Shown: one piece after another, positions 3,165-35,200 of the stretch
Layout of the letters: every line of letters begins with the position of its first letter
How positions within the stretch are numbered: position 1 is the first letter of the stretch
Assembly (NCBI GenBank): GCA_012862495.1
Contig: BLSG01000152.1
Span: 74,617 to 126,050, forward strand
Length of the DNA stretch: 51,434 bases
Source: Thraustochytrium aureum
Taxonomy: Eukaryota
Direction of reading: 5' to 3'
Program-made: the position numbers and the translations under genes
The notes under the pieces: generated by a model
Database searches by the model: none
What the model saw: the letters and a program-made list of their open reading frames with translations, nothing else
What the model was told of the DNA's origin: nothing

Positions 3165-3356
3165 CCGAGCGCAGAGACGCCCAGACGAGCGCAGGACCGG
3201 CAAAGCCACTTCGAGTGCACCCCACAGCGCTCGAGTGCACGCCGCGGGAGCAAGCAGGCCCGCGCGTGCGAGAGCGCAGCTGCCGGCGGCCGGACAGGGC
3301 CGCAGCGACCCCGAGTTGTGCGCACGCCACGGCGGAGCGTCCTCCGGCGAGAAGGG

Positions 3357-7750: not shown

Positions 7751-8285
7751 GAGGACACAAAGAAAACCATGCATTTGCATTCCGCTCACACCAGCTTGCT
7801 GCTCACGCTTGCGCCTCTGTGGCTGCGGCTGCGTCCCATACAAGAAAAGGAATTCTCGAGAACGCTCGAAAACCCGGGCCAAGGTATGCTTGGAAAGGTC
7901 GAAGGAGGCCGTGGCCTGCATCTCAATAGCGACTCGCTCGCCAAACAGTAGCTGCACTGCGAAATCGTACCCTGTAGCGCTTGGTTCGCCCCCTCCTCGC
8001 CCCCCCCCCCACCACACACACAACCTACCCTTCGCANNGTCGCTCCGNNNNNNNNNNNNNNNNNNNNNNNNNNNNNNNNNNNNNNNNNNNNNNNNNNNNN
8101 NNNNNNNNNNNNNNNNNNNNNNNNNNNNNNNNNNNNNNNNNNNNNNNNNNNNNNNNNNNNNNNNNNNNNNNNNNNNNNNNNNNNNNNNNNNNNNNNNNNN
8201 NNNNNNNNNNNNNNNNNNNNNNNNNNNNNNNNNNNNNNNNNNNNNNNNNNNNNNNNNNNNNNNNNNNNNNNNNNNNNNNNNNNNN

Positions 8286-10153: not shown

Positions 10154-11266
10154 CGTCGCCAGCGCCACGAACCCTGGTTGCTCAGGAGCCCTGCTGCCCA
10201 CCTGCGTGCCTGCCTGCGTGACAGCGAGGCTTATCGTCGAGCGCCCTCCACAGGCAAGCGGCGCGCACCGAGCGCCCGCACTATCGCGGCGCGTCTATCG
10301 CTTTCTTAGCTCTGTTGCGGGTCTGCCGGTCTCCACATTGGGCCAAGGCTCTGCATTGGGTACGAGAACAGGCTGAGAGCCCTAGCAGGGAGTGTTTTGG
10401 CCTGTTTTCAATTGATCTTGATCTTTCAAGAGTTGGGTACTAACTTGAAGACAGAATGAACCCAAGACCACAACGAGAGGCGAGAGCTCGAGCTCCGTAT
10501 GGTCGCCGCGCTCATGTGGTCGTGGGCGAGCTGAGTGAGTTTGAGAGTTCTGGCGCACTGTGCTCTGGATGGTCCAAGTTGCTGTGATCGACGACCAGCT
10601 GACGACAGTGTCATTTGTTTTTCATGTAGGGTTCCCGAGATGGCGCGAGGCGATCGACTGGCTGATGCGAACGACGATGGGCGCGAGGCCAGAGCGTTGG
10701 GGAGGGTAAGAATGAGCGCGTGGGGCGGGCTTGCGGCGCAGGGTTTTGAGGACTTGGAGGAGGCGAAGGCGGATCGGCCTGGGCAACCTGGGAGGAACTC
10801 GCTGCCTCTGTGCAGCGCTCTCTTGGAGCTCTTGCAAAACCTTGGGCTCGATCAATAGCAAGGCGCCCCCGTGGCGCAGCGAGACGTCCCTGTTGGTGCC
10901 GCCTGACCTACTCGNNNNNNNNNNNNNNNNNNNNNNNNNNNNNNNNNNNNNNNNNNNNNNNNNNNNNNNNNNNNNNNNNNNNNNNNNNNNNNNNNNNNNN
11001 NNNNNNNNNNNNNNNNNNNNNNNNNNNNNNNNNNNNNNNNNNNNNNNNNNNNNNNNNNNNNNNNNNNNNNNNNNNNNNNNNNNNNNNNNNNNNNNNNNNN
11101 NNNNNNNNNNNNNNNNNNNNNNNNNNNNNNNNNNNNNNNNNNNNNNNNNNNNNNNNNNNNNNNNNNNNNNNNNNNNNNNNNNNNNNNNNNNNNNNNNNNN
11201 NNNNNNNNNNNNNNNNNNNNNNNNNNNNNNNNNNNNNNNNNNNNNNNNNNNNNNNNNNNNNNNNNN

Positions 11267-14200
11267 GCTCGGAAACTGTGCCTCAAAGTCGTCCCCGAGC
11301 TTGTTGATCGGAACGAGGAGCTCCACTTGTAGCGACTTGCGACTCAGGCACTGCTCGCACTCCGCCTTGCGGGCGCGGTTGATGACAGGTTGGACTAGGT
11401 CGCGCAAGACTCGCCGACGACGCGCCTGCGCCAGCCACAGCCGGATGATGTTTCGCGACGCACTAGTCAAAGCGACGGGGCCAAACTTGGGCCGGCCGTC
11501 CTCGTTCTCGTCGTCGCTGGACACGTCCGGGTTGACGCTGCCCAGAATCTTGGTGAATTGGCTCTGCAAGTACGGTCTCGAGCGGCGCAAGGTGCGCGGC
11601 GTCAAAATCGACGGAAGCTGGGCCACCAACCACGGCCGGTTGTAGTCCAGGAAACGATGCCGAAAGCTCTCCGAGGTGAGCTTCTGGTTGAGCAGGTACG
11701 CCTCGTGGGACGCGCCCTTGATTTTCTCCAGCTCGTCCCAGTTTGGCGCGCCAAGGTCCTCGTCGTCGTCAAGGTTGGTGTGCCAAGCCGTGCTCTCGTG
11801 CCGCAACCGCCAGAGGCCAAACTTGTCCGCCGCAACTGCGGAGACTTTGCGCACGATGATGCATACGGCGATGCAGTAGGGCAGGAGGACGAGCATCGCA
11901 GGATCACCAAACGCGGCGTACTCGGCGCGGAGCATGATCTCAATCCCAAACACGAGCAACATGATACCTGTGGTGTACACAGACACCATAAAGTAGTACT
12001 GGGACGAAAAGCACATCTGGTCCACTGTCCGCATCGTCTCGTCGATGCACTCGTCCAAGCTGTCCTCGAACCCCTTCCAGCGGTTCTCGCGCTGCACATA
12101 GCGGTATCTGGTGTAAACGAGGTAGTCATAGATCTTCCAGCCATGGAAAAGCTCCTGGGACTGCAGAATGAACACGTCCGCGACGAGCTGAAACCCGTTG
12201 AGGATGAGAGCAAACCAGAGATAATACTCCATGTCTTGCATCCGAATCCCGTAAAGCTCGGGCAGCCCAATCTGGTCTCGGAAAACCATGAGCAGAACGA
12301 TCACAAAAGGAGTGTAGAACAGGTTGACGAGCTCGCCCGAGTAGCCCACGTAGGCGCCAAGGATGGGCTCCACAGTCTCAGTGCCCTCAAACTTCTCTTC
12401 AACGACCCGTTTGGCATCCTTGTCCTTGGCGAGCGTGCTTTCGAGCAGCTTCTTCTTGGCGGCCATGTTGTCCAGCATTTCGATTTTGGCGTCCAGCGAT
12501 CGCGCCGTCCGAATGCGAGCTTTGACCACGTCGACGGCCTCGCCGATATAGTGGAAGAGCAGTTCGAAGAAATGGTCTTTGCCCGGCCCGAAGAAAACCC
12601 GGTCGATGAGCATCAAACCGTACTCGATGACAAACCCAATGACCATGTCGAGAAAGTCGTCGGCGCCAAACGTGACGAGGCCCTCGATAATGCCCAAAGC
12701 AATAGCATGCGGAGTGACAAGAAGCGCCTCGGTCAGCATGTACTCGATGAAGAAGTCGAATACCACGGTGGCGACTTTCATGACCAAGATGAATGTCCAG
12801 ATCACATCGCCAAACCCCTCCCAGTACGAAAACTCGATCAGGAATACAAGCAGAATGGTCACGAGCAAGGTAGACAGCAGCATGGACGACCGCTTCCACA
12901 TCGTCGGCACCCAAACCGTGCGCTCTTGTCCGTGGTGGTCCCGCGTGTCTTCAAGCTCTTGCTCCTCGATCGAGACCAACCTCGGGATGAAAAGCTTGAC
13001 CCCCATCATGAGGATGTAAGCACTGAGGAACACAAAGCACATGCCAACCCGACCAGCGCGCGTGCTGTCCACCTCTTCGGGGATTACGCTGGCGTCGCCG
13101 TAGTGCTTGATCCATGATTCGAGCGTGTAGGGCTCTGAGAGGAAATCCGTCTTGTACGCCACCAACGCCTCCTGGACTTGCAAGTTCGTCATATTCTCGG
13201 CTCCCTCGATTGTCGGCGGGAACAGCAGCATCTGCGCCGTTCGAACGTGCGACTTGGCCTCCAAAAGCAGCCAAACCATGCCCAGCGCAAGCGACGTAGG
13301 AATCAGAGCAAGATAGACCCCGACAACCGGCGCCGGCGTGATGAGCGCCAGGTAGCTCATGAAGCGAAACTTGGGCGGCCGCTCCAAGTGCGTCGTAAGT
13401 CTGTTAACAGCCCAGAAGGCCGCCGTAATGACAACGATGCACATTCCGATGAACAGGAACAGGTTGATGAACACCTCGCGCTCAAAGGCAAACGCAATGA
13501 CCAGCTCCTCGTACCCAAGAGCGCGCATTTGGATCCCCAGCTCGTAGTCAGTGCGCTCCGTGTCGTGGTCAAAGTCCTCGAGCACAAGGTCCATCGAGAT
13601 GATGCGCTTCAAGTTGCGCGTGATCTGGTAGTACTTGATGTCGATCGTGACAGTCCGCGGCATGCACTGCCTCTCACACCCAGGCATCTCCTCCGCCGCG
13701 GAGCGGTCCACCTCTAGCGGAATCAACCAGTCAGATGATCCCTCTTCCACCAGAAGGTCAACGAGGCTGCCTCCTTTGAGGTACTGTTCAAAGTTGATCG
13801 GCTCCCAGGGTATTTCCAGGAGTGCGGTGCCTCCAGCGGCTTCGAACCATCGCGGCGTGAGGTCTTTGCTGCTCAAGTCCTCCTCAAAGTGGCACTGCAG
13901 TGCGTGGTGGCAGTAGTCCGAGATTGGCTCGCCAGAGAACGAGTACGGGTTGATCGTTGTAATGTCGTCGTAGTCTGGAAGTGGCGGGTACGCGTATCTG
14001 GCCCAGTCTGTCGGGATCCGCGCCCCAGACTCGTCAAACAGTGGCAGCTCGCACTTTTCCGACTCCATCATGTCCCAGATCGGGATGTGCGAGTCATACC
14101 CAGCGCAGCTCGAGAAGAACGGCCAGTACGGCAAAACAAGCTTCTCGAGGTTAAACTCCAAGTCGCGGTCGTCCTCGACGTCGAGATTCATCTCGTGGGC

Positions 14201-17200
14201 GGTTTCCCGATACTTTACGATCAAGTCCCGGACCCGTGCTGCATCAACATCGGGGGGCCCCCACCACTGCTGGTCCGTCGCCACGGACTCGTACCTGTCC
14301 AGAATGTGCGGGAAGGTCTCGTCCGCGGTACTGTTAAACCCCACTAGGACTCTGCCCTTGGCGGTCTCCGCGTACCGCTTGGGGAGATTCAGAGGGGCTG
14401 AAACGTCTGCGAGGAGGTCCCGTCGCAGGATCGCTGCGAAAAAGTGGTCCTGAACAACCTCCGTCTCGGCCGCGCTCACGATCGAGCTCAGTCGTCGCTT
14501 GGGAAACGACGCCGACTCTGTGTGGCGCTTTGAGCGTGCGCGCTCGGGACTGACGATTGTGACGGTGGCAGTGTTCCAAAACTGCGGCGCCGCCGAGGCT
14601 AAGAGGCCGTGCAAGAGGTGCACCTCGACTCGAAAGAGCACGTCTTCAAGGGCGACAAGCGAGACACCAAACTTGGAGTGCTTGTCCACGTCGTCGCTCT
14701 GAAACCAGGGCGACAAGTCGATCGGGCGAGAGCATGGGTAGACCTCGAGCTCGTCGCCAAGCTGGCAGCTCGGGTCGGCAAGGCACTCTTCTTGCGTGGA
14801 AATGCGAAGACGATTCCGCGACGCGTCGCACTTGCGCTCCTCGCACGTCGAGTTGGCCACGAAAATTGCCACGCGAAAGTGCTCGTCGTAGCGGACCGCG
14901 CTACTGATGTGCGAAAAGTCAAACTCGACGTTGGCTCGGCTCAGTCCCCGAAGGGCGTACCAGCCGCGTTCGCTCTCGCGCTCTGCCTCCTCGGCGGTAA
15001 ACTGATCGACACGGGCCTCGAATTGGCTCCATGAAACCAAGTTCTTTTGGAGGGTCCACCACGTCGACTCCATCTCTCTCTTCAGCGCGTCGCGATCCGC
15101 CGCAGTCCGCGGAACCGCAACCGTTGGACCATCGTACTCGGCCAGAACAAGGCTTGAAGCTGGTCGCTCCATCGAGAAAGCCTGGTTGGCCAGAAGGACG
15201 CTCACACGATCTCCAACGCAGTCGGCGTGCTCCTCTTCCAGATGCGCCAGAATCTCCGTGAGATTGCCTGTCTTCAGGAGCGTGTCGTCATTGAAGGGCA
15301 CGTCAACGCTACGCTCCCCAAAGAACACTCCGTCATTTGACACGTCGAGCTTGGCAAAAGCCACCGCGGCAACGCCATCGTGGCTCGCTCCGGCCGGGAG
15401 AAAGTGGGCGCGACCTGGGGCGCGGCACCGAACGCGGGTCTTTGACCGATACACGGCCGGTACGACAATAGCGTTCAAGCCGCCCACCGCAACGCCGTCG
15501 CGGCCAACGGGCGAGAACCGGCACACGAGCGTCGCCGTGTCGAAAAAGTTCCGCCCAACGACCGTGACGAGGGTGCCTCCGTCAGCTGGCACCATTGGTG
15601 GGCACACTCTTTGCGTGTGGACCGTGTCGTTTTTCCACGTCGGGGACGAGGCGGCCTCGTCCACGACCAAAATGCGCTCGATCACCTCCACTTCAGCCTC
15701 AATGAAGCCGGCCCTCCCCGAGCCCTCGTCGGAGCTGAAGTGCCGCGCCACCCCGGTGTGCGTCTCGTAGGAGAATTTGGGGTAGTAGACCTTGTCTTGT
15801 TGGAACCACCCGTACGACCCGTGCGAGCGGGTGCCGAGCTCCTTGTCGCACACCACGACGGCGTCGATTTCGCACTCCAGCAAGGAACCAGCTCCAGACG
15901 GGCTCGTTGTGCCTCGCGGGCACCGGTTGCGCGGGAGCTCAGCAGAGGCCGAACCAGGCGGGCAGTACCAGCCGATCGCGCACTGGTTCCGCTCTCGAAG
16001 GTAACCTTTCGTGCCGCGCTTGCAGTACCTGCCCAGAGGGCAGAGGTTTGAGGTCAAGTCAACCTCCTTCTCCCCCTCGAAGGAAAAGTAGCCAGCAGGC
16101 ACTTGGTGGTCAAACTGCGAGGACGAGTCCGTCCCAGCTGGGCAGATGTGGCCGGAAGGGCAGGCCGTCGTGTCTGACAAGTTTGACATCGCCTCGACGC
16201 CGCACACCCGAGTGGGGGGGCATGGCTCGCACAGAGAGATGTCGGAAGCTCCACGAAGCTGGTTCCAAGTTCCCACTGGACACAGTTTGCATGTGACGTC
16301 GTCCGCCATCGACCTGTACGTCCCGGGCGCGCAGATCGTGGGTTCGTAGGTTCCATAACCCTGGCACGTAAACCCAGCAGGGCAGGGTCGGCACGCAACG
16401 GTCGATTGGAGCGGGGCGTACGATCCTGGAAAGCAGAGAGTTGGGGCCACCGATCCCTCCCGGTGCGAAAAGGTGCCGATCGGGGCTTGCACCGGGGACA
16501 TCGGTCCCTGGAGGGCAGTAGTGGCCTGCATGGCAGGGCCCGGTCCCTGTAGCCGACGCACTCGCCCACTCGCAGTAAGACCCCTCCGTGCACGTTTGAG
16601 GAGCCACGCTGCCCTCTGGGACGGTGGATACCCAGTCGATCGTGATGTTATGCGCCACCCCGCCGAGGCAAAAACTGCCTGGCGGGCAAGGCAAAGGCCG
16701 CAACGCCGCAGCCTCAACCTGAAGGTAGGTCGGGGAGAGCGTTGAGGCCAGCTCGTCGAGGAGCTGAGCGCGAACAGCGCTGATGTTGTGCTCCAAGCAC
16801 CCAATGTGTTCCTGTGGCATAACGGGCTCGCCATCCTCAGACACAGGGAAGGCTTGGCAAGCGTCCGCCGCCGAGTCTCGAAACCCGGGACGGACAAGCG
16901 TGAGCGTACCCTCTGGGCAAAAGTATCCTGCGGGGCACTGAATGATTGGCGCCGACAGACCCTCCGAGTAGCACACGAAACCAGCTGGGCAAATTGCAGG
17001 CTCAACGCGGCCCCACCCGGGGCAAACATGCCCAACAGGGCAGATGGTGCAGTTCGCTTGGCCGCGGAATCGCTGATAGGTGCCTGGCAGGCACTCTGAC
17101 GGCTCCACGTTCCCGACACCTGGGCAATGGTGGCCCGCAAGGCACGGTACGGCCACAGAGCCACTGCCTGCCTCCTCTGCTGCGTTCAGCGGGCAAAAGT

Positions 17201-20200
17201 GGCCGGCGGGCAGGGCCCCGCGCCTTCGCCCGTAGTCGCACCTTGTGGGCAAAAGAACCCGTCGTTGCACCGCTGGGGCGTGCTAAAGTTGCCGTCCTGA
17301 GGCACCGCGCTGGCCACACCGCCGCGGCAATAGTAGCCGCGCGGGCAGGCCACCGGGCGCTCTGCACGAGTCCTTGTTCCAGAATTATGCGAAATAGCCC
17401 GCGCGAACCCTGTTGCCGGCGCAGCACGTCGGCGCATCTGCCAACGCTCGGCGCGAGAGCTGTGCAAAAACGTTGCTTCCGCTGTGACCTTGTCCACCAC
17501 CCATTCTACCTCTGCGCCGTCCGCCAAGTCAGCAGGGTCACTTGACTTCGTGCCTGGCCCGCAGACGTGGCCTGCGGGACAGGCCCGCAGAGGCTCACGG
17601 AGGCCAAGCTCCTCGCAGACAAACCCTGCGGGGCAAATCTCGGGCTTATACATGCCGAAATCTGGGCAGATGAACCCGATCGGGCACTGCAAGCACGTTG
17701 ATTGGCCAGCCCGCGGCTGGAAGCTTCCTGGAGCGCAAAGCGTAAAGTTTCCCTGAGCCCCCGAGGGAACCATCGTTCCGTTTGGTGCAGCGAGTTGCAT
17801 GCTCCTCGAGCACAGTCTTCCTGGCGGACACCACGGCTCGACCTCGACGAATCTGCCGCTCTCCGAAAAATCGACGCCGTTCAAAGTGACGTCGACTTGC
17901 ACGCGCTCGTGGTCCTGCAAGGGCGGTGACAGGCAGCTAACCAGCGACTTGGAGAGGAACAGGGCACGCACAGTAACCGAAGAGCCGAACCGGCACGCCA
18001 GCGAAGTCGTGTTCGCAAAGTGGCGCCCCGCTGCAAAGACCAGCTGCCCGCCCGAAGCTGCTACCCGGCGCGGCTTGACAGCGCTGACGCTGTGGTCCTT
18101 CACATAGCGGAATCGCGCCGAGGCGTTCCCGAAGAAATCAACGGCGTTGTTGGACACTTGGACGTCGACGGCACTCGCTGGGTCGCCCACTTTGCCAAGG
18201 TCCGCGGCCTGCGGAGCTCGGCAAACTATCTTGCCCGTGTTCACAAACTGCGCGGGAACGCGCTCACCCTCGGGGCCAAACCTGCAGGAAAGTGAGTTGG
18301 TGTCCGCAAACCCAACTCCGAAGACGGCCACGGCAGTTCCGCCGGCGAAAGCCGGCCCTTGCGTTGGCCAAATGCCCATCACACTGGGCGCCCTCTCATA
18401 GGTTACAAAGAAGCGGGCTTCGGCAGCCGAAGTGAAGTCGACTCCACCATTGACTGAGATGCGCACCGGGTGCCTACCGTCCTCGCCGGGAGGGGCAGTG
18501 CACTCTACCGCTGCAAGGCTGCTGCGGGAGATCCACTGAAAACGTGCCGTTGCGAGCCGCGCAGCTTGGGTGCTTGGGCCATTTCCAAAACGGCACCACA
18601 CGTCGTGATGCGGTGACAAAGCATGTTGCAAAACCACTTTGACTCGCGTGTTTCCCAGCCGTGAGAGAAGCAGAGGGTGAACCTCAAGGACCTCGACGGG
18701 CCTGTCGTACACAAAGCGCAATCCGCTGTCCACGAACGAGCCCTCCCCATTGCCTTCGATCACGCTGATTTGAAAGGACACAGACTGGGCCGTGTGGCCG
18801 CCAATGCCCTCTACAGAAGGCGAGAGGCAACGCACGGTTGTTGCATTCTCAACGCGAACGTTTGAGCTGCGCAGCGACCCAAAGCGACACACTACAGCAC
18901 TTGAGGCTCCTCGGGTGAGACCCAGGCCGCGAACAGTGACCCAGGTGCCTCCGCTGACCGGCCCACTTGGAGGATGGATCGAGTGCACCTCAGGCGCCTC
19001 TACCAGTTCGAGATGCACGGCAGCCGCGCCGTCGTCTGAAAACTCGAGGCCGTTGTTGCTTACCTCCACAAGAGCTGCGCCAGGCGCCAGGCGCGGGACG
19101 AGGCATCGCGCGAGGGACTCTGACACGTAGGATGCGGGGCTCACGGCGCCGCCGACGCGGCACGTCAAGTCCGCCCTAGGCGCGAAGCCAGACCCGGTGA
19201 CAGCGATGTGAAAGCCCCCAGCGGTGTATCCAACTTGCGGCCAAACTCGGTAGACGCGCGGCCGCTCCATGAACTCGTGGCCATGCAGCCGAGNNNNNNN
19301 NNNNNNNNNNNNNNNNNNNNNNNNNNNNNNNNNNNNNNNNNNNNNNNNNNNNNNNNNNNNNNNNNNNNNNNNNNNNNNNNNNNNNNNNNNNNNNNNNNNN
19401 NNNNNNNNNNNNNNNNNNNNNNNNNNNNNNNNNNNNNNNNNNNNNNNNNNNNNNNNNNNNNNNNNNNNNNNNNNNNNNNNNNNNNNNNNNNNNNNNNNNN
19501 NNNNNNNNNNNNNNNNNNNNNNNNNNNNNNNGTTGGTCAGCGGCCCGTTGCTTGAAAGGAGGCGCTCGCGGAGCCGGAGGCTTGAGCCGTCCCCAAACGC
19601 TGGGTCTGCGATCGCCCCCACAGAGTCTGGTAGTGAAACGTAAGTGAACGCTGCTGGCAGGCTCGCCAAGACAGCGCCGCCCCCACTTGAGGAGACGAAA
19701 ACGTCTACAGGCCCAGGTGCCTGGCCTGCGCTGGGGGGCAAAAGACACCTAATCGAGCGCGAAGAGCTGACATAAACACCGCGCGACTCGGTCCCACCAA
19801 AGCGGCACACCAGCGCCTCCAACGACATCCACGACTCGTCCACATCACTAGCAGGCGATATGACGAGCTCACTTGAACGCCGCCGCGCGTCGGCCCTGTC
19901 AGGGGCTTGATCGTCTCAACTCGGAGAACAGGAACACGAGTGAATGGAGCCCGCACGGCGTGCACCTCTTTGCCGTTGTTCGACACGCCGACAAATTGCA
20001 AGCCAGCGCCGAGCGCGGGAGGGGCCTCGCACTCCAAAAGCGTGTCAGAGAGGTAGGTCGCAGCAACCCAGTCCGAGCTACCAAATACGCAGGACAGTCC
20101 TCGCACATTGCGAAAGTGCCGTCCCCCCACTTGGACCACGGTCCCACCGAGCGTCGATCCGCGAGCAGGACGCACGACCCACGCTTCGGGCTCAAGGGCA

Positions 20201-23200
20201 AAGATAAACGCAGCGCTGTGCCCAGGGCGGTCTCGAGGAAGGTCTTCGCTCTCGGCAGCAATCATGACGTCAAACACAGCTTGGCCATCCGGGCTATTCG
20301 CAACAAGGTCGTGCACAGAAGGCGTCTCGCAAAGCAGGCGCGTGCTTGAAACAAAGACCGAGCTCTCCGACAGGACCAGCTTGCTGCCCCGTTTGAATGC
20401 ACACCGGTCGCTTGGAACAAAGTTGCGCCCAGTCATCGCGACGAGCGTGCCGCCCCGGCTGGAGCCGCTCTCTGGTTCAACGTTCCAAACCTCGGGCGAC
20501 GCCAGAAAACTGAATTTCGCGAGTGTCTGCACAGCGGAAATCTCGATTCCGTTTCCCCCTGTCACGCGCACAAGGACTGCTCCCTGTTCCTGGCTCTGCG
20601 ACCCAGTTCGAAGTATCGGCGGGCTTGGGCAGCTCAGCGAGGTCGAGTTGTGTACCATGGCGGCGGTACGCGCTTGGCCAAAAACGCACCATACGTCGGC
20701 GTCAGAAGCAAACCCAGTGCCACGCACAGTCAGCAGCGTCCCGCCATGCGCGGGGCCGCTCGCTGGGTAAATCGAATCAACTCGAGGGGCCTCTTCAAAC
20801 CTGAACTCAAGAGACCCTGTGGCGAAACTACCGTCCTGGAGGGACACGCGGAGCTCCGCGACGCCAGCGCGAGGAGCTTGCGGTGACCTACACTCCACCG
20901 CGTCATCGCCAAGCCATCGTATCGCCGTTGCCGAGCTAAAGCCGTCCGAAGTGAAGTGGCACCTGGCGCCGTTTCCAATTTGCTCCAGACCGGATCCAAA
21001 GACTTGGACCCATGTCCCTCCGTCCACAGTGCCACGACGCGGCTGGGCAGCAGAGATCTCCACCACTCGCTGGTACTGGAACGCGAGCGTGTTCCCCGAC
21101 AGAGCCACTTCTTGGCCGTCGACAAGTGCAACCACATCAACGCTAGCCAGCACCGGAGCGTGCCACGGCGGGGACGAGCACTGGATAGCCGCCGCCCCAG
21201 CCCCAGCCGTCTCACGAAGCAAGGGTTGGGCCGCTACGAGCCGCTCGAGCCCAGAACCGTCCTGGAATCGGCAAAAGCACGTGGAGAACCTTGCACCGTC
21301 CCCGCAAACCTGCTGCGCAATCGAGATATTCAGTAGAGTTCCGCCCAAGGCATAGGGCCCAACGAGGGGCCTCTCCGAGGCTATGTCGAGCGCTGGAAGT
21401 ACTTCAACAGACATGCCAGCCCCTCGGGAGACCTTGGTGGACTGGCCAGCCCAAAGCGAAACCGTCCAGTTTCCGGGAAGCGCGTGCCGAGGAACGAGAC
21501 ATGAAACGTGTGTCAGGTCTTGGGCGAGGACCCCAGGCACGCGCAGTTGGCCAATCTCGCACTCAATGCCAAACCGGTACTCGTCTGGGAGCTCCACCGC
21601 GGTTGTCCAAGGAAGCCGAACGGTGNNNNNNNNNNNNNNNNNNNNNNNNNNNNNNNNNNNNNNNNNNNNNNNNNNNNNNNNNNNNNNNNNNNNNNNNNNN
21701 NNNNNNNNNNNNNNNNNNNNNNNNNNNNNNNNNNNNNNNNNNNNNNNNNNNNNNNNNNNNNNNNNNNNNNNNNNNNNNNNNNNNNNNNNNNNNNNNNNNN
21801 NNNNNNNNNNNNNNNNNNNNNNNNNNNNNNNNNNNNNNNNNNNNNNNNNNNNNNNNNNNNNNNNNNNNNNNNNNNNNNNNNNNNNNNNNNNNNNNNNNNN
21901 NNNNNNNNNNNNNNNNNNNNNNNNNNNNNNNNNNNNNNNNNNNNNNNNNNNNNNNNNNNNNNNNNNNNNNNNNNNNNNNNNNNNNNNNNNNGAATGGCGC
22001 TCTCCTCCTCCGGATCCTCAAAGGAGCACTGGAGCCCCGCCGACGGCGCCCCTTCAAAAGCGCTGTTGAAGTTGTTTCCGAAAACGCGAATTGAGCTACC
22101 TTGGCCGTGGAAAACCACGTCCGGGGTCAGGCCGCGAACCTCCGGGACGGCGATCACAGCGACCTGGGGGCTCTCTGAAAGTGCCGACCAGTCCACGCCG
22201 TTCGTTGTCGTGAGCACGCGCACCGAGATGACGCCGTTTGATTCAAGCAGGTCGAACTGCGGAGCAAAGCACGCAACGCGACCGCTTGCATTGGGCCGTC
22301 CACACGGTGAACTTGGACGACTGTTGCCACGCTCTCGAGAGCACCCTGCGTCACAAAGTTGCACTTCGTGATGGAGCTCGCATTTGCGAATGGGCCGACC
22401 AAGACCTCCGCGCCGCCCGTTGCCGGGATAACAGCTGGAGAAGCAGACCTAACTTGGCTTGGTGCTTCGAGCCAGAACATTTGGTCTCCCTGAGCTCGAA
22501 CAAAATACGCGTCCCCCCAGCCCACTGCAACGAACACAAACTCGCTATGCGCGCTAAACTTGGGCACGGAGCACTGCACAGATCTTCCGCCACGCTCTAC
22601 GATCGCGGTCACCGGCTCGCTGGCCCCGAATTTGCAGTACAGCTCCGGGTGCGCGGGAAGTAAAGCTGCGCCAAGCTCGATGCTGACTTGGGTGCCTCCC
22701 CTTGAAGGTCCGCTTCGTGGCGAGAAAGAGGTCACCACAAGCGGTGGCACCACCTCGACGGTGGTGTTTGCGAAGTCAACTCCATTGTTGCTCACTTGGA
22801 TTGTCCAGGGCGTCACTCCTCCGGGCTCCTGGCCAACACTGGACGCAGTTACGCTGCAAATGATGTGCTGGCTTGAAACAAACCGAGCGGGGAAGCTGAC
22901 GTACTGACTCGTTGAAGCGCCTTGGACGCCGGCGCGGCAAGACAGTTCGGCAGAATCGCGCAGCCCGCTGCCAAACACGGAAACTGCGATTTCTGCGCCG
23001 TGCGGGATACGTGGTGGGGCTGTCCGCCCGACGAGAAGGACGGGCGCCTCGTACACAAAGGTGCACGTAGCAAGCACGCTTTCGTATGCGTCTTGTAGGA
23101 AGACTTGCGTGGTTGCGTGGTCAGTGTCCGCGCCAAGAACACGCCGCAGAGGCGGTGACACGCAAGAGGCCCGCCCGCTCGGGGACAGCACAGCAGGTAC

Positions 23201-26200
23201 CTGGACAACGCCGCTCGGCGCACCGAACGAGCAGGTCCAGCCCGGGTCGCCCTCTTGGTAACCTTCGTATGACTCGCTGACAGCAGAGTCGAGCGAGAAC
23301 GAGATCGGTGTCCCTCCAGAAGTCGGTCCGCGGCCAGGGCCATCGAATCTGGTTGCACCGATGGCGCTGTAGGTGAATGTTGCGGATGCTTCCAAGAGCT
23401 CCTGACCGTTTAGAGTGAGTTCGAGCTTGACCGGTACAGCGGACCGAACAGCGCCAGGCCACGGAGGAGAGACGCACTCCACCCGAAGCACGCCTCCGCC
23501 GGCTCCTTGAGCGAGCTCGGAGTCGTGCCCCGCAAGGACACGCCCCGATACGCGTCGCCCTGGGTCACCAAACTGGCACTGGGGCACCCAATCCTCTACC
23601 ACGGCCGTCGCGTGCAACTCAATGGTAACGCGTGTGCCACCGTGCGCTCCGCCAACCTCTGGTGTCACGGACAGGATATCGGTATGCCAAAACGGAGAAA
23701 ACACCATGGCGTCTGCAGCATCGCCAGCCTCCTCAAGCCGCTTACCGTTGGCAAGAACAGTGACGCGGCGACGGGCCAAGGCCTGGTCTGCATTTCCTGG
23801 GCTCATGGGTGGGGTGACGCACTCGATCAGGTTGGAGGAGACGAAGTGAGCGGGAGACAAGTTTTGCGAGCCAAGTGAGCTCTCTGCAAAGTCACACATG
23901 AGCACGTCCATGGCAGAAAACCGAGCCCCAAGAATCGAAACTCGGGTTCCGCCCCGGCCAGGACCGAGACGAGGGCGAATCGAGGCCACAAAAGCCGGTG
24001 CCGCATACGTGAACTCGAGTGACTGGGCGCTCCAGTCGCTTCCCCCGTTCGTTGATACCCGAACCAACACCATGCCCTCGTTCAGACCCATTTGAAGGCG
24101 GAACCTCGCACTCCAGCTCGGTACTGCTGGAAACCACGGCAGTCACGACTTTGAGCTTGCCCGTCGCCGAGTCCTCGCCGAACGAACAGACTGTCTGTCC
24201 CTGGACAAAATTCCAGCCCTGGATTTGCACGACCCCAGATCCCAACGTAGACCCCGTGTCAGGCCAGAGACGGATGAGATGAGCGGCTGGACGGAACTCA
24301 AAGCGGAAGCCCGTTTCGAGCACCGCCGACTCGTCGAACGACAGCCCAAGAGGCACGGAGAAGTTGCTATTGGCCGCAGCTCCTCCATTTGGCGCCGCAG
24401 GGGATTTGCACTCGAGCGCTGCTCCAGCATCGAGTCTCACTGCGCGCGAGGTGCTGTCTCCGAAGTGGCACTTTGCGTGCAGGCCGCCAAGATTCTGGCC
24501 CTCGATGCGAACAATCGTGCCGCCCGCAGACGAACCTGCAAGAGGCAGAACAGATCGCACGATCGGCGTATCGTAGGCCGTAAAGGAAATGGNNNNNNNN
24601 NNNNNNNNNNNNNNNNNNNNNNNNNNNNNNNNNNNNNNNNNNNNNNNNNNNNNNNNNNNNNNNNNNNNNNNNNNNNNNNNNNNNNNNNNNNNNNNNNNNN
24701 NNNNNNNNNNNNNNNNNNNNNNNNNNNNNNNNNNNNNNNNNNNNNNNNNNNNNNNNNNNNNNNNNNNNNNNNNNNNNNNNNNNCGTCGTCGTCACCCTTG
24801 AGAGCAGGCTCGAGAAAGACCCCGGATGGGTATTCCACAACAACGACGTAGCGCTGTGGTACCTGCAAAGGCGGCGAAACGCACTCTACAGTATCAGCGG
24901 AGCGCCAGATCGCTTTGGAAGCAGCCGCCCCATGCTTGACTGTGTCGTCCGAGGTGCGCGTCGAGGCTGGCCAAAAATGGCAAGTCATGCCCTCCGATTC
25001 CTCCCCTCCTTTCCCCCAAGGCCGGGGGAACCCTGATCCTGAGATGCGGACTAGCGTACCTCCGTTCACCGAGCCAGCACGTGGCCAAACCGAACTCACG
25101 CGGGTTTGGCTCGTGTAAGCGAACTTGTACGGAAGCAGCGTTGAGGCACCTTCGCCAAAGCGAATCGACAACGAAACAGTGCCCGCGCCGCCGACCGCCT
25201 CTCGGGACGGGGCGATACAGGTGAAGCGATCACCTTGCACCTCAATCGCTGGAGCCACGACTTGCTCCCCAAAGACGCACGCAAGCGCTTGTGGCATGGC
25301 TGAGAGACTGTGGAGCCCCTCATCTGCAGAGATACGCTCAAACGCGCCCTGGATAAGTATGCGGGTACCGCCGTTCTCTGAGCCAGAGCGTGGATGTACC
25401 TGCGTCACTGCAAATGGCGGGGTAAAGGTAAACAATCCACGATCTGTGCCAGAGCTGCCGAAAAAGTCAGCCCCGTTCACGGTGATCCGAAGTCCAACCT
25501 CTCCAGTGGTCGGCACGCGGGGAGCAACGCACGAAATTTCGTTCGAGCTCCGAAAGGTCGCAGCCGCGCGAGCAAAGACGAAGTCGCACGCCAGCTGCGG
25601 AGTATGCACAAAGTTCGTGCCGCGGATTGTCACAATCGTGCCCCCCGTCGTGGCGCCGCTCTGTGGCTCAATCGACGAGATAGTAGGTCGCGCTGAGAAG
25701 AGGAACATCCCTGCGCCCTCATAATCGACATTGTTGTTCGAAACCTGCACCTCTGCAGGCCCGAGCTGGGCCACCTTTGGCGTCACACATCGCATCGTTC
25801 GCTCGTCAACCCACTCTGCGATTCCCTTGAGCGAGGCCCCGCTGCTGAGAAAGCGAAATTTGCAGGCAAGCTGGGCCGAGTTGTAGAACACCCCTCCGCG
25901 AACGACAATTCGAGTGCCACCCCCGTCCGAGCCGACCCGTGGACTAATGGTTGCCACATGCATTCGCTGCGTGTATACAAAGCCGCCCGCGCTTCCACGC
26001 GCAGCGCCCTGCGCATCTCGAACGACAACAAGGCCGACTTGGCTTTCAGACATGCCGCTAAACTCCGAGGCTGTAGACGCGCCTACATCTGCCCTCGGAG
26101 TCAAGCAAATGATTTCAGACTCCGACAGTACGATTGCAGGGACCACGTCGTGGTTGCCAAAAATGCACCCCGGCTCTGGGCCGTCGAGGTTGCGGCCGTT

Positions 26201-29200
26201 GATGCGAACGGCAGTGGAGCCCGCAACGCTTCCTGCGCGTGGCGCGACACGCGAAATGACCGGGTTGTAAAGGACACGCAAGACTTGCGCGTTGTCGAGA
26301 GGTCCATCGAGATCCCCGCTCCGCGCAACCCAGAAGAGGATATGTTGTGCGGCATCCGAGCGCATATCGAGCGCCGGGGACTCGCACTCTACTTCTTGAG
26401 AGCCGTGCACGGCTGCAGGAACCGTGGCCCTCCAGGTAGAGTTTTGCTCAGCGAAGCGGCACTGCAGGTTGTCGGCCGACCCAAAATTCGCCCCACGCAC
26501 TCGAAGTAGGGAGCCCCCTGCTGCAGCGATGGAGCTGGGCTTCACAGAATGCACGCGAGGCCCGTCGCGAAGGAAAAGGGGCGAAAGCGCAAGGCTAGGC
26601 ACAGCGGTGCCAGCCGCGAACAGGTGCACCACGGAGGACATGAAGGGTCCCGCGATCAACTCTGCAGGGAGCGGGCAGGCGATGCACGATGCGTTGACCC
26701 ATTCGGCTCGGTAGTCGCGCCGCCAAACCCGGGAAACTGGCAATCGACGGGAAGGCTTGCGGAGAACCCAAACCCTTTAACGGAGACGCGCTGGCNNNNN
26801 NNNNNNNNNNNNNNNNNNNNNNNNNNNNNNNNNNNNNNNNNNNNNNNNNNNNNNNNNNNNNNNNNNNNNNNNNNNNNNNNNNNNNNNNNNNNNNNNNNNN
26901 NNNNNNNNNNNNNNNNNNNNNNNNNNNNNNNNNNNNNNNNNNNNNNNNNNNNNNNNNNNNNNNNNNNNNNNNNNNNNNNNNNNNNNNNNNNNNNNNNNNN
27001 NNNNNNNNNNNNNNNNNNNNNNNNNNNNNNNNNNNNNNNNNNNNNNNNNNNNNNNNNNNNNNNNNNNNNNNNNNNNNNNNNNNNNNNNNNNNNNNNNNNN
27101 NNNNNNNCGTCAGTAGCCACTGGAGCTCTGACGATGCGGATTTGAGCTACGTCTGTCAAAGACACCAAATCTCCAAAGCCGGGCTCCGAAATTGAGACTG
27201 ACGCGACAACGTCAGGTGTGTCCGCAAGAGCCCCGAGTTCGAGTTGGCCCACGCAGCGGATGTATTCGGGTTCGGCGAGGGTGGATTCACAAGCCAAGCG
27301 GCCCACTTGAAGACCCGCGACCGCAACCTTGCATTCTGTTGCGTTCGAGTCTGTCCAGTTTCGCCCTGCCCTGCGGGCGGAAAGCGTAACGCTTTTCGTT
27401 GACGCGGCGGCGCTCACTACCAGCGTGCTGGGCTCCACGGTGAGTGGCGCGACCTCCTCGAAAGCGAGTGTTGTTGGTTTGTCTCCGTGCAGGAAGTCCA
27501 CCCCGTTGAGCGTCAATGTCAAAGTACCAACAGCTCCCGTGGGCAAGAGGTGCTCCATGCCAAAGTGGCATGCCACACGGCGCGGCGATACATAGCTTGC
27601 AGGGATCGCCGCCGAGCTTCCCTCCAGTCGGCAGGCTAGCGCAGCCGATGGCCAAAACCCTTGCCCAGATACTAGGACGGTCGTGGGAACGCGAGAGGAG
27701 ACCACAGAAGGCTCAGCCGAGCCGAGTTTGGCAGGGGTGAAGAACCGAAATGTCCCCAAATCATACACAACGACTTGCTCGAACCCCGTGGGGCCCGCTT
27801 CGCCGAACGCCACATGGAAGGTCTCCTCGATAGATCCCCGAGGGGCTGGCCGTGCTGCTGCTGGAGCGGTGAGACAAATTACCTCCGTGGAGGACACCAT
27901 TTTTGCAGCGATTGGCGCTCGGGAACCAAAGCGGCACTGAGCACTGGGCAGCGCGTTCATGTGCGTCCCGAGGACGCGCACTTCGGTCCCGCCAGCGAGT
28001 GAGCCCGAAGACGGCGTTAAGCCATCAGGTTCCGGCACCCGACCCAAAACGCGCACTTGTAGCCCTGTTGCGCGAAAGGATCGGCCTTGATCAAGAGAAA
28101 CCCAAATCGGGACGTCTGAGAATGGCGCGGGCGAGCGGAACAGCTCGAAAGGAACAATGCAGGCGATGTGGTGCCCACCCGCTCCACTCACCAAGGTGCC
28201 AGGGGAGTGCCGCGCTTCGGTACGCGGCCCAAATCCACAGACTGGCGACCCGACAACGCTCGGCAGGTTTTCGAGATGTAGCGACACTCGTGCGAGGCCG
28301 GAAGCACCATCTTCGAGGCGGACGTGGCGCGGCGAAACACCAGAAAAGATCGTCGACTCCTCGAGCCAGGCAAGACGTACTTGTGCCAGGGTCGAGCGCG
28401 GTTGGATCGTCCTGCAGTCCACACTGAGGCCGACGGAAACAAGCACAGAGCCGCTGTGCACTCCTCTTGCAAGCGACCGCACGACTTCTGCTCGGGTCGG
28501 GCGGGCACACGCTACTTCCACGCCCGACACGAAGGATGCTGGAGTGAAGAGAGCCCCGTCCGCAAAGGTGCAGCACAAGGAGCCCGAGTCGACAAAGCCC
28601 GCTCCGCGGAGGGTCAATGGCGGCGCAAAAACGTCTGACTCTTGCACCCTAGTCGAAACGTTCAAGCCGCCATCTTCATAGACGATGTCGTCTGGCTCAA
28701 CAGCAGCGACTTGCCAAGAAGGAACAATGCGGACAATTGCGTCGCGTCCTGCAGACGGCGCCCAGGTCTGCGAGTCGTCGATGGAAATGCAGGTCTCATA
28801 TTCGCCTGGCTCGATGGATGCGCTGCCAAGGTCGCACCTAGCTCGGGTGGCAGACAGCGCAGTTCCTTGGGCCTCCATGCCGCGTCCCGAGCAGTTTGCA
28901 TCCGCACTTGCGTGCACGAGCTTGCAACGAAAACTGAGTCCCTCGGAAACCGGGAAGTTGTGTCCAAGGACCTCCAACTCTGCCTGTTCGCCAGGCAGAC
29001 GCTCCGCAGCGACAACCTTTGGAAAGACCGCCTGGAGACGCGGGATGTGAAGGTAGGTGAATCGAGCGATCGCGAGGACGTCGGATCCTGGTTGTGCAGA
29101 AACCGCCACAAAAACGTGACCGGGCGTCTCTGCATGCGGCATGTCACAAAAGGCCACCCTCGTCGCCGCATCCCACGCCCCGGACTCCACAGAGACAGGT

Positions 29201-32200
29201 GTCATCAAGTCCAGCGCCATGTAGACGGTGCAGACCACACCGGCTAGCTCACCGTCAGCAATCGGCCCAATCGCGACGCTCGTGCCTCCGGCCATGGGCC
29301 CACTACGCGGCGAGCCAATGACTAGATCGCCTGCTGCTGCTGGCGAACTAACGCGAAAAGAGATCGGCGCCGCAGAGATTTGCAATTCGCGCTCTCCAGC
29401 AAATACGGTAAAGTTGACTTGCCCGCCAGCAACAGCTCCTGAGCCGTCAGTCGCGGCGAACGGAACGATGCATTCTAAGGAATCGGAGCCTAGAAGTCGG
29501 GCGGGAACCAATGCCTCGCCAAATGCGCAAAACATCCGAACTCCGCGCCGAAACCCGGCACCAACTATCTTCACCTTCGTCCCAGGTTCGCCTTGAGCTG
29601 GCACTACGCGATCGAGCTTGAGCGGATGCAGAACCACGAGGTCAAGAGCACCCCTTGCTTGACCGCCCGAGGCGCTCGGCTCGTTCACGACAGCGACCGC
29701 AACCGGTTCTTCAGTTGCGCGTGAGGCCATTCTGGGGTGGAGCAAAGCGCGCGCGACGCCGAAACCCACATCGCCGGGGTGTCTGTGCAGCGGCTGGCAC
29801 TGCAAAATCGGCATGCGAGCTCGGGAGACGGCGCAAAGTTGGCCCCCGAAACAGCCAAGCGCGTACCACCTAGCGAGGAAACATACGGCTTGTCGAGACC
29901 TAGGACGACCGCCTGGGCAGATCGGATCAAGCTCGCGGGTCGCCCGTTATGGCGGGCAATCTCAAAATCAGCTCCATTCAAAGCGACCTGAATCGGGTCT
30001 TGAGCCACGACGATGGCAGGCGCCCTGGTCGGATTTTCCAACGGGTGGACCAAGCACCTAAGCGTTCTGCCGTCTTGCACGGCGCACGCGCTCAGAACGT
30101 CGCTCTGGCTGAATTTCACGAGGGGGGCTTGCGCGAATTGCAGCTCCTTCGTGAACGTCAAGGTTACGTTCGCTGACTCATCAGCGCAAACGCTTCGTGG
30201 AGCGAAGCTTTCCAGCTCCGGAAGCCCAACGAAAGAGAATAGCGGCACGCCGCTTGTGTCCACGCTGTGAGTGATCTCGCTCCCCAAGGCGATCGAGACG
30301 CGCACGTCCATCTCCTCCTCCATTGGCGGTGAATAGCACTCGAGCGAGGTGTCTGCGATACGCCTCGCCGGGACCGACTGAAGCGCAACCTGGTCCTCAG
30401 CATCGACTTGAACAAAAACGCACCAGTACTCTTCACCAGAGCCAAACCCAGTTCCGCGAACCAAGATCCGCGTCCCTCCAGATGTCGGGCCCATGTTGGG
30501 GCTTACCTCTGCAACGCGAACATGAGGCACGATTACAATCGCGACTGCGTTGTTGGAAATGTCTTGCCCATTCGAGGAGACGGCCACCGTGACGCTTGTG
30601 ACTCCCGCTTCTAGAATCTTGTCCGCAGGCGGTAGGATGCAAGACGCTTCCGTCTCGCTGGTGGCATGCCCTGACGTGGTAGCTCGTGAAACGCCCTGCA
30701 CAATCCAGTGGCATGTAAGAGATGATGTCCTGCCAAACCCCGCCCCGTGCAGCGCGACTGTTCCCCGAGAGATTCCAAAGTCCAAGTGCGAGAGCCGCGT
30801 GGGTTCGGCACGAAAGACTTCCGGCCTGGGCTGAAAGCGAAACGGGAACACGTCGAGTTCCACAAAGTCCTCGGCACTTGAGCCGGCTAGGCGAAACGCC
30901 AGAGACACAGAGGACTCTCGGGTCGAGCCTGCAGCGGGCGTCCGGCAAGCCCACTCTGCCACTTCCGCGCCGCCCGCGCTCAAAGGCTGGGCTTCTATGT
31001 CAACTGCGGGCGACGAAGAACTCTCGCCGAACCGAAACCTGCACACTGTTTCGATGCCGTCGAGGAGAATGCCGGCCGCCGTGCGGACTAAAAGGCGAGT
31101 TCCGCCCTCTATCGGCCCGTGGGCGGGCTCAAAGCTACTCGGCGACTGGGGAAGGTCCCGCAGCTCCACGTGCACGCCGACGGGAGAGAACGCGCCAGAC
31201 TCTGTAAAGGTCGAAATTTCGAGCTCGCCCGCTCTCAAACTCGTCGGCGGGATCGAGCAGAGCGCTGCCGCACTTGTCTCGTTGAAAGTCAGCGAAACTG
31301 GCCCTGGCTCACCGTCTCCTAGCCGGCAGAGCAGCTCCAGGCCCTGTCCCAGCGAGATTGCAAGCGCGCTGCTGACCTCGTCGAGGTCNNNNNNNNNNNN
31401 NNNNNNNNNNNNNNNNNNNNNNNNNNNNNNNNNNNNNNNNNNNNNNNNNNNNNNNNNNNNNNNNNNNNNNNNNNNNNNNNNNNNNNNNNNNNNNNNNNNN
31501 NNNNNNNNNNNNNNNNNNNNNNNNNNNNNNNNNNNNNNNNNNNNNNNNNNNNNNNGCGAGCACTCGCTCTTGAGCGGCGGAAAGCGGGGCCAATGTCGTC
31601 AACGGCAGGTAAAGTACTTCCTGCGGAGTTGCGAAATAATCTTCGCCGTTGAAAGACACCTCAAGCCCGGCCCTCGAGCCACCGGGGGCCAGCTCGAGCG
31701 ACGAATCCCAGTCAGGCACGTCACACTCGATGATCCCAGTCTGAAGATCGAGCCTGCCGCGCGCAGGTAGTGCGAGGGCGGTGTCATCAAACGAAACCTT
31801 GCAAAATGCCTCCGGTGCTACCGCGCCTTGCACAACGCGGTCCAAGTTCGTGACGGTGACCTGAACGGGCGAGTTTTTCGAGGGCCCAGCTAGTTTTGCT
31901 CTGCCTCCGTCAAGGAATACAGGTGAGGGGTGCAAGTAGAACGACGCTGCCACCGTATGCTCGAGAACCGCGTCCACATGGCCCTTAGAGTTCTCCACAC
32001 CTCGAGCAAGCTGCTCAGCCAGCGCTGCAGAAACGAAGCGAACTGCACAGCTTGCTCCAGTAAGTCCATCGTCTTTGAATCCCGACAAGAGGGAACGCGA
32101 AGAGCACGATGACGAAGCAGAGTCAAAGACACTCGAGAAAGAAAATTCGTCCGCGTCAATCCCCGTCCTGCACAAGAACCAGCACGCAAACTCGGTTTCC

Positions 32201-35200
32201 ACAGCGATGCCTTGCTCAAGACGAACTTGCAATCGAGTCTCGTGGCCCAAAAATGACGCGCGCTCCGGGTAGACAGCAATGAGGCCAGGGAGAGCATGAA
32301 AGGCCACCGTGGAGGATGAGGGCCACACATCGACGCCATTGCTCGACAAATGCAAACTTTGCACACCGGACTCCAGAGAGACATCTGGAGCTTGGCACAA
32401 CGCCGTCGAGCTGTTGAGGACGGTCGCTTCTGTGATCGCGGGGACTGTTTGGCCAAAGTGACAGTACCGAACGCTTTGCGCGGACAGGTTCAGGCCACTG
32501 ACAACAAGGTGCCCGGGCCAGAGCACTCGCGATGCTTGCCCGACGGGTAGCGAATGGGCGCTTGGGATGTGCACCGGCGGCTCCACAAAAGTATACCCGC
32601 CGTCGAGGGGCTCTGACCAGTCGAGTCCGCCATCGCAGGAGACTTGAAGCGTAACGCGCCCCGCCACGTCCTGGGGCGGGGCCACACACTCAAGGTTGCC
32701 GCGACTCGCTGAGAGGGCACTGACGACATCATCGCCGAATCTGCAACTACACATGGCACCGAACGCAGACCCGGACAAGTGCACCGCTGTGCCGCCAGAC
32801 ACCGGACCCACGTTGGGGCGAGCCGAGACGAGTGCCGGCGTCTGGGTGTAGGTGAAAGTAGCCACCGCGACGGGCCGAGAGGACGAGTGCAGCGAAATCT
32901 CGACAGAATGCGGTAGCGGTCGCTCTGAGAGCGGCACCGGGGGCGATACGCATGAAAACGTGTCAAACCCAAGCTGTCGCGCAGGAGCCCGCTCAGTGTC
33001 GCCGAACTGGCAGTTCTCGACTATCACGTCTGAAGAACCAAATACCGCAGTTGCGTTCAGGACCTTAAAAACCACCGTGGTGCCTCCGCTCGCCGGGCCG
33101 CCGAGCGGGCTGGCCTCAACAAGCCTCGAACCTGGCAGAACCGGCGAAACGACGGTGAGCGTTTGCGCGCCTTCGGGCAGCTCAAGCTCTGTGAAGCCGT
33201 CGTTGGTGAGCAAGCGGACACGGTGATCGCCGAGCGGCAGGTCGCGCGGCTCCAGAGCGCAAACGACCACAGATTCGCTGGCGTATACGGCAGGCACCAC
33301 GAACCCGTGCTCCCCGATGTGGCATTGCAACTCGGCAAGCGAGGTGAATCCTGATCCGCGCACTGCGACAAACGTGGAAACCGAGTAGTCCACAGCACCC
33401 GGTTCGAGCCCGAGCAGGACAGGCGCTTTGTATACCAAGAGAGCGTCAGCGAAGGGCTCGGACAACTCCTCCGCGCTGTTGGAGACGAAAGCCGTAACGT
33501 GATACGTCTTGCCCGCCTCTGGCTCGCGAAACGGTATCGCCTCGCACAAAACCGAATCGTCGTCGCCATCCAAGCGCGCGGGAACGGTCACTCGCTCGGT
33601 TCCAGGTTCTCCATCGGCCGCCACCGGCCAAGTAAAGTGGCATGAGAGCTCGTCGTTCTCAGCAAACCCTGACCCCCATAGTCGAACTGGGACGCTCGCT
33701 GCTGATATAGCGGTTGGCGAAACGCGGAAGAGGCTCGGACGCGCTGTGAAGGTAAACGCAACCCCGCCAGCACTCTCAGCAATGAATGAGCTGGCCTCAG
33801 GACCTTGAAGATCGTCGCCATCCCAAAACACGACGCTGACACGCGCAACGCCAGGGACGCCGTGAGCGGGCGTCTGGCACTCCAGCAGCGTGTCGTTGAG
33901 CACGTTTGCTGGCTGTGAAACTGCTTCAAACGCGGCGTGCCGCTCTTGGGCCACAAAGAGGCACCGGGGCAGCGGCGCGCCGTTGTGGACCGTTTCATAT
34001 TTCAGGAACCCTTGACCCTTGATGCGTACGGCAGTGCCGCCCTCCAGCCGCCCTAAGCTTGGCGTGATCCCAAAGAGATGCACAGTCGGCTCCGACTGCG
34101 TCTCTACGGCCTTCTCGGCGTTGGCGCTAATCAAGACGGTAACGTCTGACGGCGCCCAGTCGGCGCCGTTGAGCGACACGGAAACGACCCACTCGCTGCG
34201 GCCGAGCGTGCCAGCATTCTCCGGAACGAGGCAAGCCACCGACGTGTTGGAGACCAGCGTAGCAGGAGAATGCAGTTGAACCGGGTTTCCAAACCCACAG
34301 AGCATCGCCGGAGAAAACGCAAAGTTCGTCCCGAGAACCTCGAGAGCAGTGCCTGGAGCGGCGAGGCGCGGCGACACGCCGAGCAACGAATGTGAGGTGG
34401 CGTAGTAGACAAACCTGATCTGGCCGACGGACACAACGCGGCCTTCTACAGAAACAGAGACGTCAAACTCGACGCCAGACAGAGTCCGGACGTCTGGCGC
34501 GAGGCACGCCGCGTCAGCTGGGCCGAGAATGGCAAGCGGTGTCTCAACCCAGGTCGCCTCGCTCGACGCCCTGGTGAATCGGCAGCTCGAAGCGATCGAT
34601 GCATCTTGAAGGAGGGCATCAAAGCCGTCGCCCTGCAAGCGGATTTGCGTCCCCCCACTCGATGGACCGCTCAAGGGAGCGGCTGAATCAAGGACGAGCG
34701 TCGGGAGAAACGAGAAGGCTGTCGACGCGTTTGCCAAGCCTTGGGCAAAATCAAGCCCGTTCGGCGACCACGCGATATCGGCCCGGATCAACAGGTCTCG
34801 CCCAAAGCGAGCGCCAGAGCTTGCAGTTGCCGCACAGAGGTCGGAGAGCTTCGGGACCTGGCATATCGCGAATCCTGCATCCGAGTATTCACACGCCGTG
34901 ACGAAACGCCGCCCCTGCTCCCGAACTGTAACGGCACACCAGCACGGCTCCCGGGGGCGCCAAGCGCGCGGTCGGCCAAAATCGTTGCATTCGTCGCTTC
35001 ATGGCTCGGACCCATCCTTGGATCGATGCCTGTGACAAATGGCCTGTTCACGACGTCAATAGGCAATACGTTCGAAGCGAGGCCTTCAAATCGAAGCGCG
35101 ACTTGGACAGTAGCCGGCGCATCAATGGTATTTGGCAGAGAGCAGCGCGCTTCGCCACCGCCCGACACGGTGGCCTCGACGACTGCGAGGGGCGCGGAGG

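Follow-up and report, generated by a model that had tools for sequence, protein, structure and literature searches.

A giant TIG-repeat protein of Thraustochytrium aureum with a membrane domain of predicted TMEM16/OSCA/TMC-like topology

A standing question about proteins of the TMEM16/OSCA/TMC superfamily is whether membrane tension or a tether opens them; the tethered case that is known takes a many-part complex. Most members assemble as dimers, and ion conduction or lipid scrambling is what marks the superfamily functionally. TMC has ten transmembrane (TM) helices, a cytosolic N-terminus with helices of its own and, in hair cells, a separate cadherin tip link. Among proteins with long ectodomains, Polycystin-1 carries 11 TM helices behind an immunoglobulin (Ig)-like one, and fibrocystin is a single-pass protein with a TIG array. 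In the accessible parts of the sources, seven families of the superfamily are described (ANO, ANO-L, TMC, TMC-L, CSC, CSC-L1 and CSC-L2), whose members all have a domain of Pfam clan CL0416 (Anoctamin, TMC or RSN1_7TM; PMC5868767); the TM4/TM6 interface is a common gate (PMC11534332); and TMC and TMEM63 are mechanosensory or osmosensory without a canonical Ca2+ site (PMC13164078). The CRMPs of apicomplexans and ciliates, again from excerpted texts, have nine TM helices (five predicted in Tetrahymena), are called G-protein-coupled-receptor-like and are proposed to sense host contact (PMC9815656, PMC9670195). Here we analyze a stretch of 51,434 nucleotides from Thraustochytrium aureum (the window; GenBank assembly GCA_012862495.1, contig BLSG01000152.1, positions 74,617 to 126,050), whose minus strand carries a giant gene for a protein that combines a TIG array with a C-terminal multi-pass membrane domain.

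We put a probability of roughly 0.5 on the view that this 11-helix domain is an ion channel (possibly also a scramblase) of the TMEM16/OSCA/TMC fold, opened when the protein's own Ig-like tether is pulled or makes contact. The motifs quoted in an earlier sequence-only reading of the window all fall in one open minus-strand frame, 11267-13510, and residues are counted here from 13510. That reading had counted about 10-11 TM helices, with about six as its lower limit. For the window protein the hydropathy profile shows 11 peaks, as does the average over the family, and the AlphaFold2 model has 11 helices that match them (predicted local distance difference test, pLDDT, 85.8); a model of the core alone reaches a pLDDT of 91.7 and a predicted template-modelling score (pTM) of 0.90. 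When the model was compared with known structures, as had been proposed, the TMEM16, OSCA and TMC branches ranked first, the best rows being TMEM16s, not OSCA or TMC. The ten-helix core shares its order and packing with the TMEM16/OSCA/TMC (TCS, anoctamin) superfamily in this comparison, and of the channel, transporter or sensor module originally suggested, a channel is now the leading choice.

The coupling analysis (159 rows, about 141 effective) gave modest scores. Couplings K206-E261, T379-D462, T40-L454 and M258-L449 put loops 0-1, 4-5, 6-7 and 8-9 on one side of the membrane, and E226-R528 and I225-R423 put loops 3-4, 7-8 and 9-10 on the opposite side. With helices named by their order, the K245-D303 and L242-L301 couplings pack TM4 on TM6, the gate interface. 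As the helix count is odd, the membrane separates the ectodomain from the tail, and since some complete relatives have signal-peptide-like starts, it is the ectodomain that would be outside. The predicted arrangement is TM0 and a ten-helix core in TMEM16 order, with the tail inside.

The likeness to TMEM16 could be coincidental, the domain being a new fold and its own kind of transporter or receptor. Neither sequence nor Foldseek provides a link, the root-mean-square deviation is high and the Z scores are middling. A PDB sequence search with the query gave no match at an expectation value (E) up to 10, PDB searches with profiles A1, A3 and A5 gave matches only at E above 0.1, and Foldseek gave none at E 0.001 against the PDB and viral models. 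Pfam and NCBIfam found nothing consistent in the query or its relatives, in keeping with the earlier failure to assign a named family. A CL0416 domain was not matched in the query, in 52 relatives (E up to 1), in 18 further scans or in 31 A5 members, nor were PLAT, REJ, GAIN or PKD_channel over the membrane and juxtamembrane regions. A 7tm_7 match in one of the 52 relatives (P0113; E 1e-5, below cut-off) was set aside. Against coincidence, all three branches of the superfamily rank first, in order and end to end, other membrane proteins score lower (MFS, ABC and NHE 4.7 or less, BacA 6.0), and the TM4-TM6 coupling is separate evidence; we consider it improbable. Polycystin, Meckelin and Piezo are absent from the listed rows of the structure comparison, an absence that does not exclude them. 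The nearest ESM Atlas clusters are unnamed, with scores under 0.9, and a weak feature likeness (0.81-0.82) that turns up repeatedly is to fungal and oomycete clusters of PF28488 (SPCC553_12c), a lead only.

The family is probably a remote relative of the superfamily that works alike. Each of the seven described families has sequence features that it fails to show, and it is filed under none. The short TM7-TM8 link with PL[A/L]P (MEME motif 1 in the accessible part of PMC5868767) was not found by eye in the family consensus, where the link is a longer FR.E...P..YGI..D loop. Compared with TMEM16A, F, K, nhTMEM16, afTMEM16 and Ist2, the giant protein has an extra TM0, an outside N-terminus of about 9,000 amino acids (aa), no Anoctamin match, a longer TM7-TM8 loop, an incomplete Ca2+ site and a tail with an added Zn module and Trp-helix repeats. 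It differs from OSCA/TMEM63 (CSC) in having a giant ectodomain, no RSN1 match and, between TM2 and TM3, a loop of about 27 aa (residues 175-201) instead of the large cytosolic PHM7_cyt domain. In contrast to TMC-1 or TMC-2, the core is preceded by TM0 and a Cys-rich ectodomain, and a single chain includes the putative tether, which is not a separate tip link. The protein is like Polycystin-1 in having 11 TM helices after a long Ig-like ectodomain, and like fibrocystin in its TIG array. No description of the family was found in the literature searched, where coverage of subscription journals was thin.

At E 0.001 or better, the 748-aa query matched 1,036 cluster representatives, 297 of them at 1e-30; the best 150 were seen. 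The protein is shared by many algae and protists, and the names among these listed matches are Triparma, Chrysoparadoxa, Ectocarpus, Discosporangium, Heterosigma, Pelagomonas, Pythium, Phytophthora, Aphanomyces, Thraustotheca, Albugo, Cafeteria, Cantina, Bigelowiella, Andalucia and Litonotus; the named members are annotated as hypothetical, uncharacterised or after their TIG/Cys repeats, and none is a CRMP. In a FastTree tree of 180 of the 217 matching rows, the window protein belongs to a clade of 101 rows with support 99; tails there are around 290 aa long, and those members that have names are stramenopiles. Long coiled-coil tails mark a second clade (Pythium brassicae, Cafeteria, Cantina, with Bigelowiella at the base). 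A second paralogue class (P0125, P0133, P0147, P0150, P0155, P0165, P0128) has the same core and Cys pairs and an additional coiled-coil tail of about 300 aa. Because oomycetes have both classes (here in different Pythium species), heterodimers are possible. A third group (P0065-P0075, P0120, P0176) is without the four-Cys module, and the repeats of Ser/Asp plus Trp helix in its tail number four to five or more; marine metagenomes often contain complete copies in a single open reading frame (ORF), with P0070 standing for 308 members.

The domain had been called motif-rich, and the quoted motifs are conserved far above chance: over 105 aligned relatives, Y430, E453, W478, D486, D497, C500-F501-S502, Q504 and D536 are invariant to 90% or more. 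The acidic residues remarked on in several helices also recur family-wide: D/E is found at E296 in 71% and at D303 in 69% of rows (n=171 each), at E393 in 75% (n=185) and at D445 in 97% and E453 in 98% (n=187 each). Position 245 on TM4 is basic in 119 of 162 rows and covaries with the acid at 303 on TM6 (105/14/6/37, with three E-R swaps); over independent pairs the score is about 10 to 0 (median p 0.002), for a pair picked after the ranking was seen. In the excerpted text of PMC11534332, lysines put on TM4 let TMEM16A, TMEM16F, OSCA1.2 and TMEM63A pass lipids. In that of PMC5868767, Ca2+ ligands are paired on TM6, TM7 and TM8, and TMC-L has N/Q-x3-D on TM8. Here the corresponding Q441-x3-D445 has D/E/N/Q at 441 in 77% of rows and D/E at 445 in 97%. 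Set against the six TMEM16 ligands on sequence alone, Q441 and D445 fit, and E296 on TM6 and E393 on TM7 are without partners; a partial cation site on TM6-TM8 is plausible.

These residues bear on another explanation: the same fold could serve a Ca2+-activated channel or lipid scramblase, with the ectodomain used for adhesion, spacing or targeting and not for gating; such a protein might act at a contact site, exposing lipids or driving secretion. It would account for TMEM16s as the top structural rows, for the conserved acids on TM6-TM8 and for a native TM4 Lys where, in the accessible part of PMC11534332, engineered lysines give scrambling in TMEM16 and OSCA. However, the branches differ little in Z, not all of the Ca2+ site is there, and K245, with no established register to the published mutants, seems to be acid-paired, so that it may be a latch instead of an opener. 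We regard this explanation as rather unlikely.

In the tether-gated channel that we favor, the anchor of the TIG rod would be a surface, a wall, a scale or a partner cell, and load would run from the rod via the ever-present juxtamembrane domain into TM0 and the core. The Lys245-Asp/Glu303 pair would span the TM4/TM6 gate, and the TM4-TM6 pair would break; the groove lined by TM3-TM6 would conduct ions, perhaps lipids. The acidic residues on TM6-TM8 could bind Ca2+, and Ca2+ and tail partners may tune the channel, the basic Trp helices beside the Ser/Asp spacers and the Zn module providing regulatory docking sites, e.g., for an EF-hand protein. The protein could instead be a non-conducting adhesion receptor, its TMEM16-like scaffold signaling via the cytosolic loops, Trp helices and Zn module. 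Conservation does peak in the TM8-TM9 cytosolic loop and the tail. The architecture is also that of CRMPs as far as excerpted (PMC9815656, PMC9670195): Ephrin-receptor-like Cys repeats precede a multi-pass C-terminus, N out and C in, and there are two paralogue classes. Yet the charges on TM3-TM8 (E226, K245, E296, D303, E393, D445) are more in line with a permeation path than with a passive scaffold, which makes a pure receptor a poor bet. Compared by description only, there are 11 helices here and nine in CRMPs, for which the accessible parts of the two papers report no TIG array. The giant protein is not shown to be a CRMP or a polycystin.

Our own TIG profile gave 59 matches, one module being split in two and one match lying outside the array, which is interrupted by runs of N and single-base frame errors. 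With about 57 modules at about 4 nm each, the rod could reach 200 nm or more; counting the lone membrane-proximal one, the frame has about 58 TIG modules. The units at the far N-terminus have no Pfam match and are a candidate ligand-binding tip of the putative tether; by eye, the N-termini of P0091 and P0098 begin with similar units. Next to the membrane, the region 13511-15400 is matched in all 105 relatives of at least 1,500 aa. The juxtamembrane ectodomain has neither a Pfam nor a PDB sequence match and is a candidate force or ligand coupling domain; it carries conserved Cys and Trp.

One suggestion about the tail failed. The supposed IQ-like motif was compared with the IQ consensus, [FILV]Qxxx[RK]Gxxx[RK]: a strict IQ occurs in 0 of 149 rows and Gln at its position in 0 of 164, and position 6 is Leu in 85%. 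A true IQ motif is ruled out, the segment being one copy of a repeated basic Trp helix without Gln. The unit is a Ser/Asp-rich spacer followed by an L-S-x-x-S-x-x-I-x-x-x-W-L-x-x-A-R helix, with about three copies in relatives; at least two copies of the helix are present in 80 of 123 tails vs. 4 of 2,460 shuffles. Net charge is +3 or more in 146 of 154 rows, and a relaxed 1-5-8-14 calmodulin pattern, loosened after viewing and without a control, fits 135 of them. An EF-hand protein or the membrane could be the partner of such basic amphipathic helices, and calmodulin-type binding is possible. The ORF enters a run of N before a second CxxC. The partner pair had been suspected in this gap, and relatives indeed have it: among the 123 tails that are 200 aa or longer, 101 have two CxxC (commonest spacing 52), 4 have one and 18 none, and that spacing places the second about 20 codons into the run. 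A weak PDB match of the Zn module to nicking endonuclease 9qgv (E 0.23) was not recovered with a tail-focused profile; the position of the catalytic His of an HNH-type (treble-clef) module is E/V, and the HNH-like look is faint, a lead only. Class A relatives extend about 165 residues beyond the visible tail, and the run of N holds 117 codons. The DNA past it (10622-10914) is, by eye, unlike the relatives' C-termini in any of three frames, including a minus-strand open frame of about 96 codons.

By translation, the minus strand from about 40973 to the run of N at 11267 forms one long coding region, with no intron-like joints seen and with frame changes noticed at eight N-free places. Contigs of other sequencing runs were aligned over two stretches covering four of the eight, and one-base differences repaired all four (16494 in run X1, 17206 in X1 and X2, 34949 in X2, 36329 in X1 and X2). 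X1 may come from the source sample, and X2 is possibly an RNA run. Within 11267-13510, 15 of 18 substitutions in the other runs are synonymous (among 40 of 83 differences listed). Because of these repairs and the mostly synonymous substitutions, the locus is most likely a single intact gene, some 30 kb long and encoding about 10,000 aa, and we reject a pseudogene; the longest relative found has 7,926 aa. The membrane domain follows the TIG array, Cys repeats and juxtamembrane domain in this coding region, and its reading as the effector end is supported. No start codon is visible at the N-terminal segment; it is probably inside the run of N above 40973. The surroundings are ordinary housekeeping genes, THOC1 downstream and the others upstream (Table 1), and no functional cluster. 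Farther out are an EGF-like-repeat ORF (3162-4289, plus strand; below cut-off) and, at the left end of the window, a TPR ORF (63-977, minus strand).

Table 1. Features of the giant gene and its neighbors (window coordinates)
Feature	Position	Strand	Evidence
N-terminal ectodomain segment, three beta-rich repeat units ending in LQWR-type motif	39702..40973	-	translation
Cadherin-like / bacterial Ig-like modules	38700..39701	-	Cadherin_4 E 0.013, Big_9 E 0.02; weak, below cut-off
Array of ~57 IPT/TIG Ig-like modules, putative tether	17834..38624	-	Pfam TIG, own profile
Cys-rich repeats, Ephrin_rec_like / GCC2-GCC3 type	15900..17830 (limits approximate)	-	E 1e-4 and 1.7e-4, just under cut-off; translation
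Lone membrane-proximal TIG module	15287..15631	-	own profile, E 1e-16
Unnamed conserved juxtamembrane ectodomain, ~600 aa	13511..15286	-	conservation in relatives
TM0, extra N-terminal helix, residues 11-39	13394..13480	-	hydropathy, model
Ten-helix core TM1-TM10, residues 59-564, predicted TMEM16/OSCA/TMC-like topology	11819..13336	-	models, structure comparison
TM4-equivalent with conserved basic residue K245 (12776-12778)	12734..12811	-	couplings, conservation
TM6-equivalent with E296 and D303 (partner of K245)	12581..12655	-	couplings, conservation
TM7/TM8-equivalents with E381, E393, Q441-x3-D445, E453; candidate partial Ca2+ or cation site	12143..12370	-	conservation; motif C in accessible part of PMC5868767
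TM8-TM9 cytosolic loop, HGWKIYDY...QMCFSSQYY stretch, most conserved loop	12005..12142	-	conservation
FRHRFLDYNRPWL helix motif of cytosolic tail	11627..11665	-	conservation
Ser/Asp-rich spacer and first basic Trp helix ("IQ-like" segment)	11405..11524	-	tail alignments
First half of four-Cys (likely Zn) module, CEQC at 11348-11359	11267..11359	-	tail alignments
THOC1	7523-10294	-	
RMC1	41770-45015	+	
UPF1/MOV10-type helicase	45161-48280	-	
SPT5	48628-50343	-	

In closing, a bolder version of the tether-gated channel deserves mention, although we hold the odds to be somewhat against it: the family may be an ancient, unrecognised fourth branch of TMEM16/OSCA/TMC proteins in stramenopiles, Rhizaria, Discoba and ciliates, a channel fused to a tether of at least 200 nm with a TM4-TM6 salt-bridge latch as its gate. 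In one chain, it would correspond to the hair-cell tip link together with TMC. If true, a deep branch that sequence methods miss would be added to the superfamily, and a long Ig-like rod and a channel core in a single chain would make tether gating testable by truncation. The native TM4-TM6 charge pair would be a natural test of the gate mapped by mutagenesis in TMEM16 and OSCA. The protein would be a candidate for touch or surface sensing by oomycete zoospores, algal gametes and flagellates.
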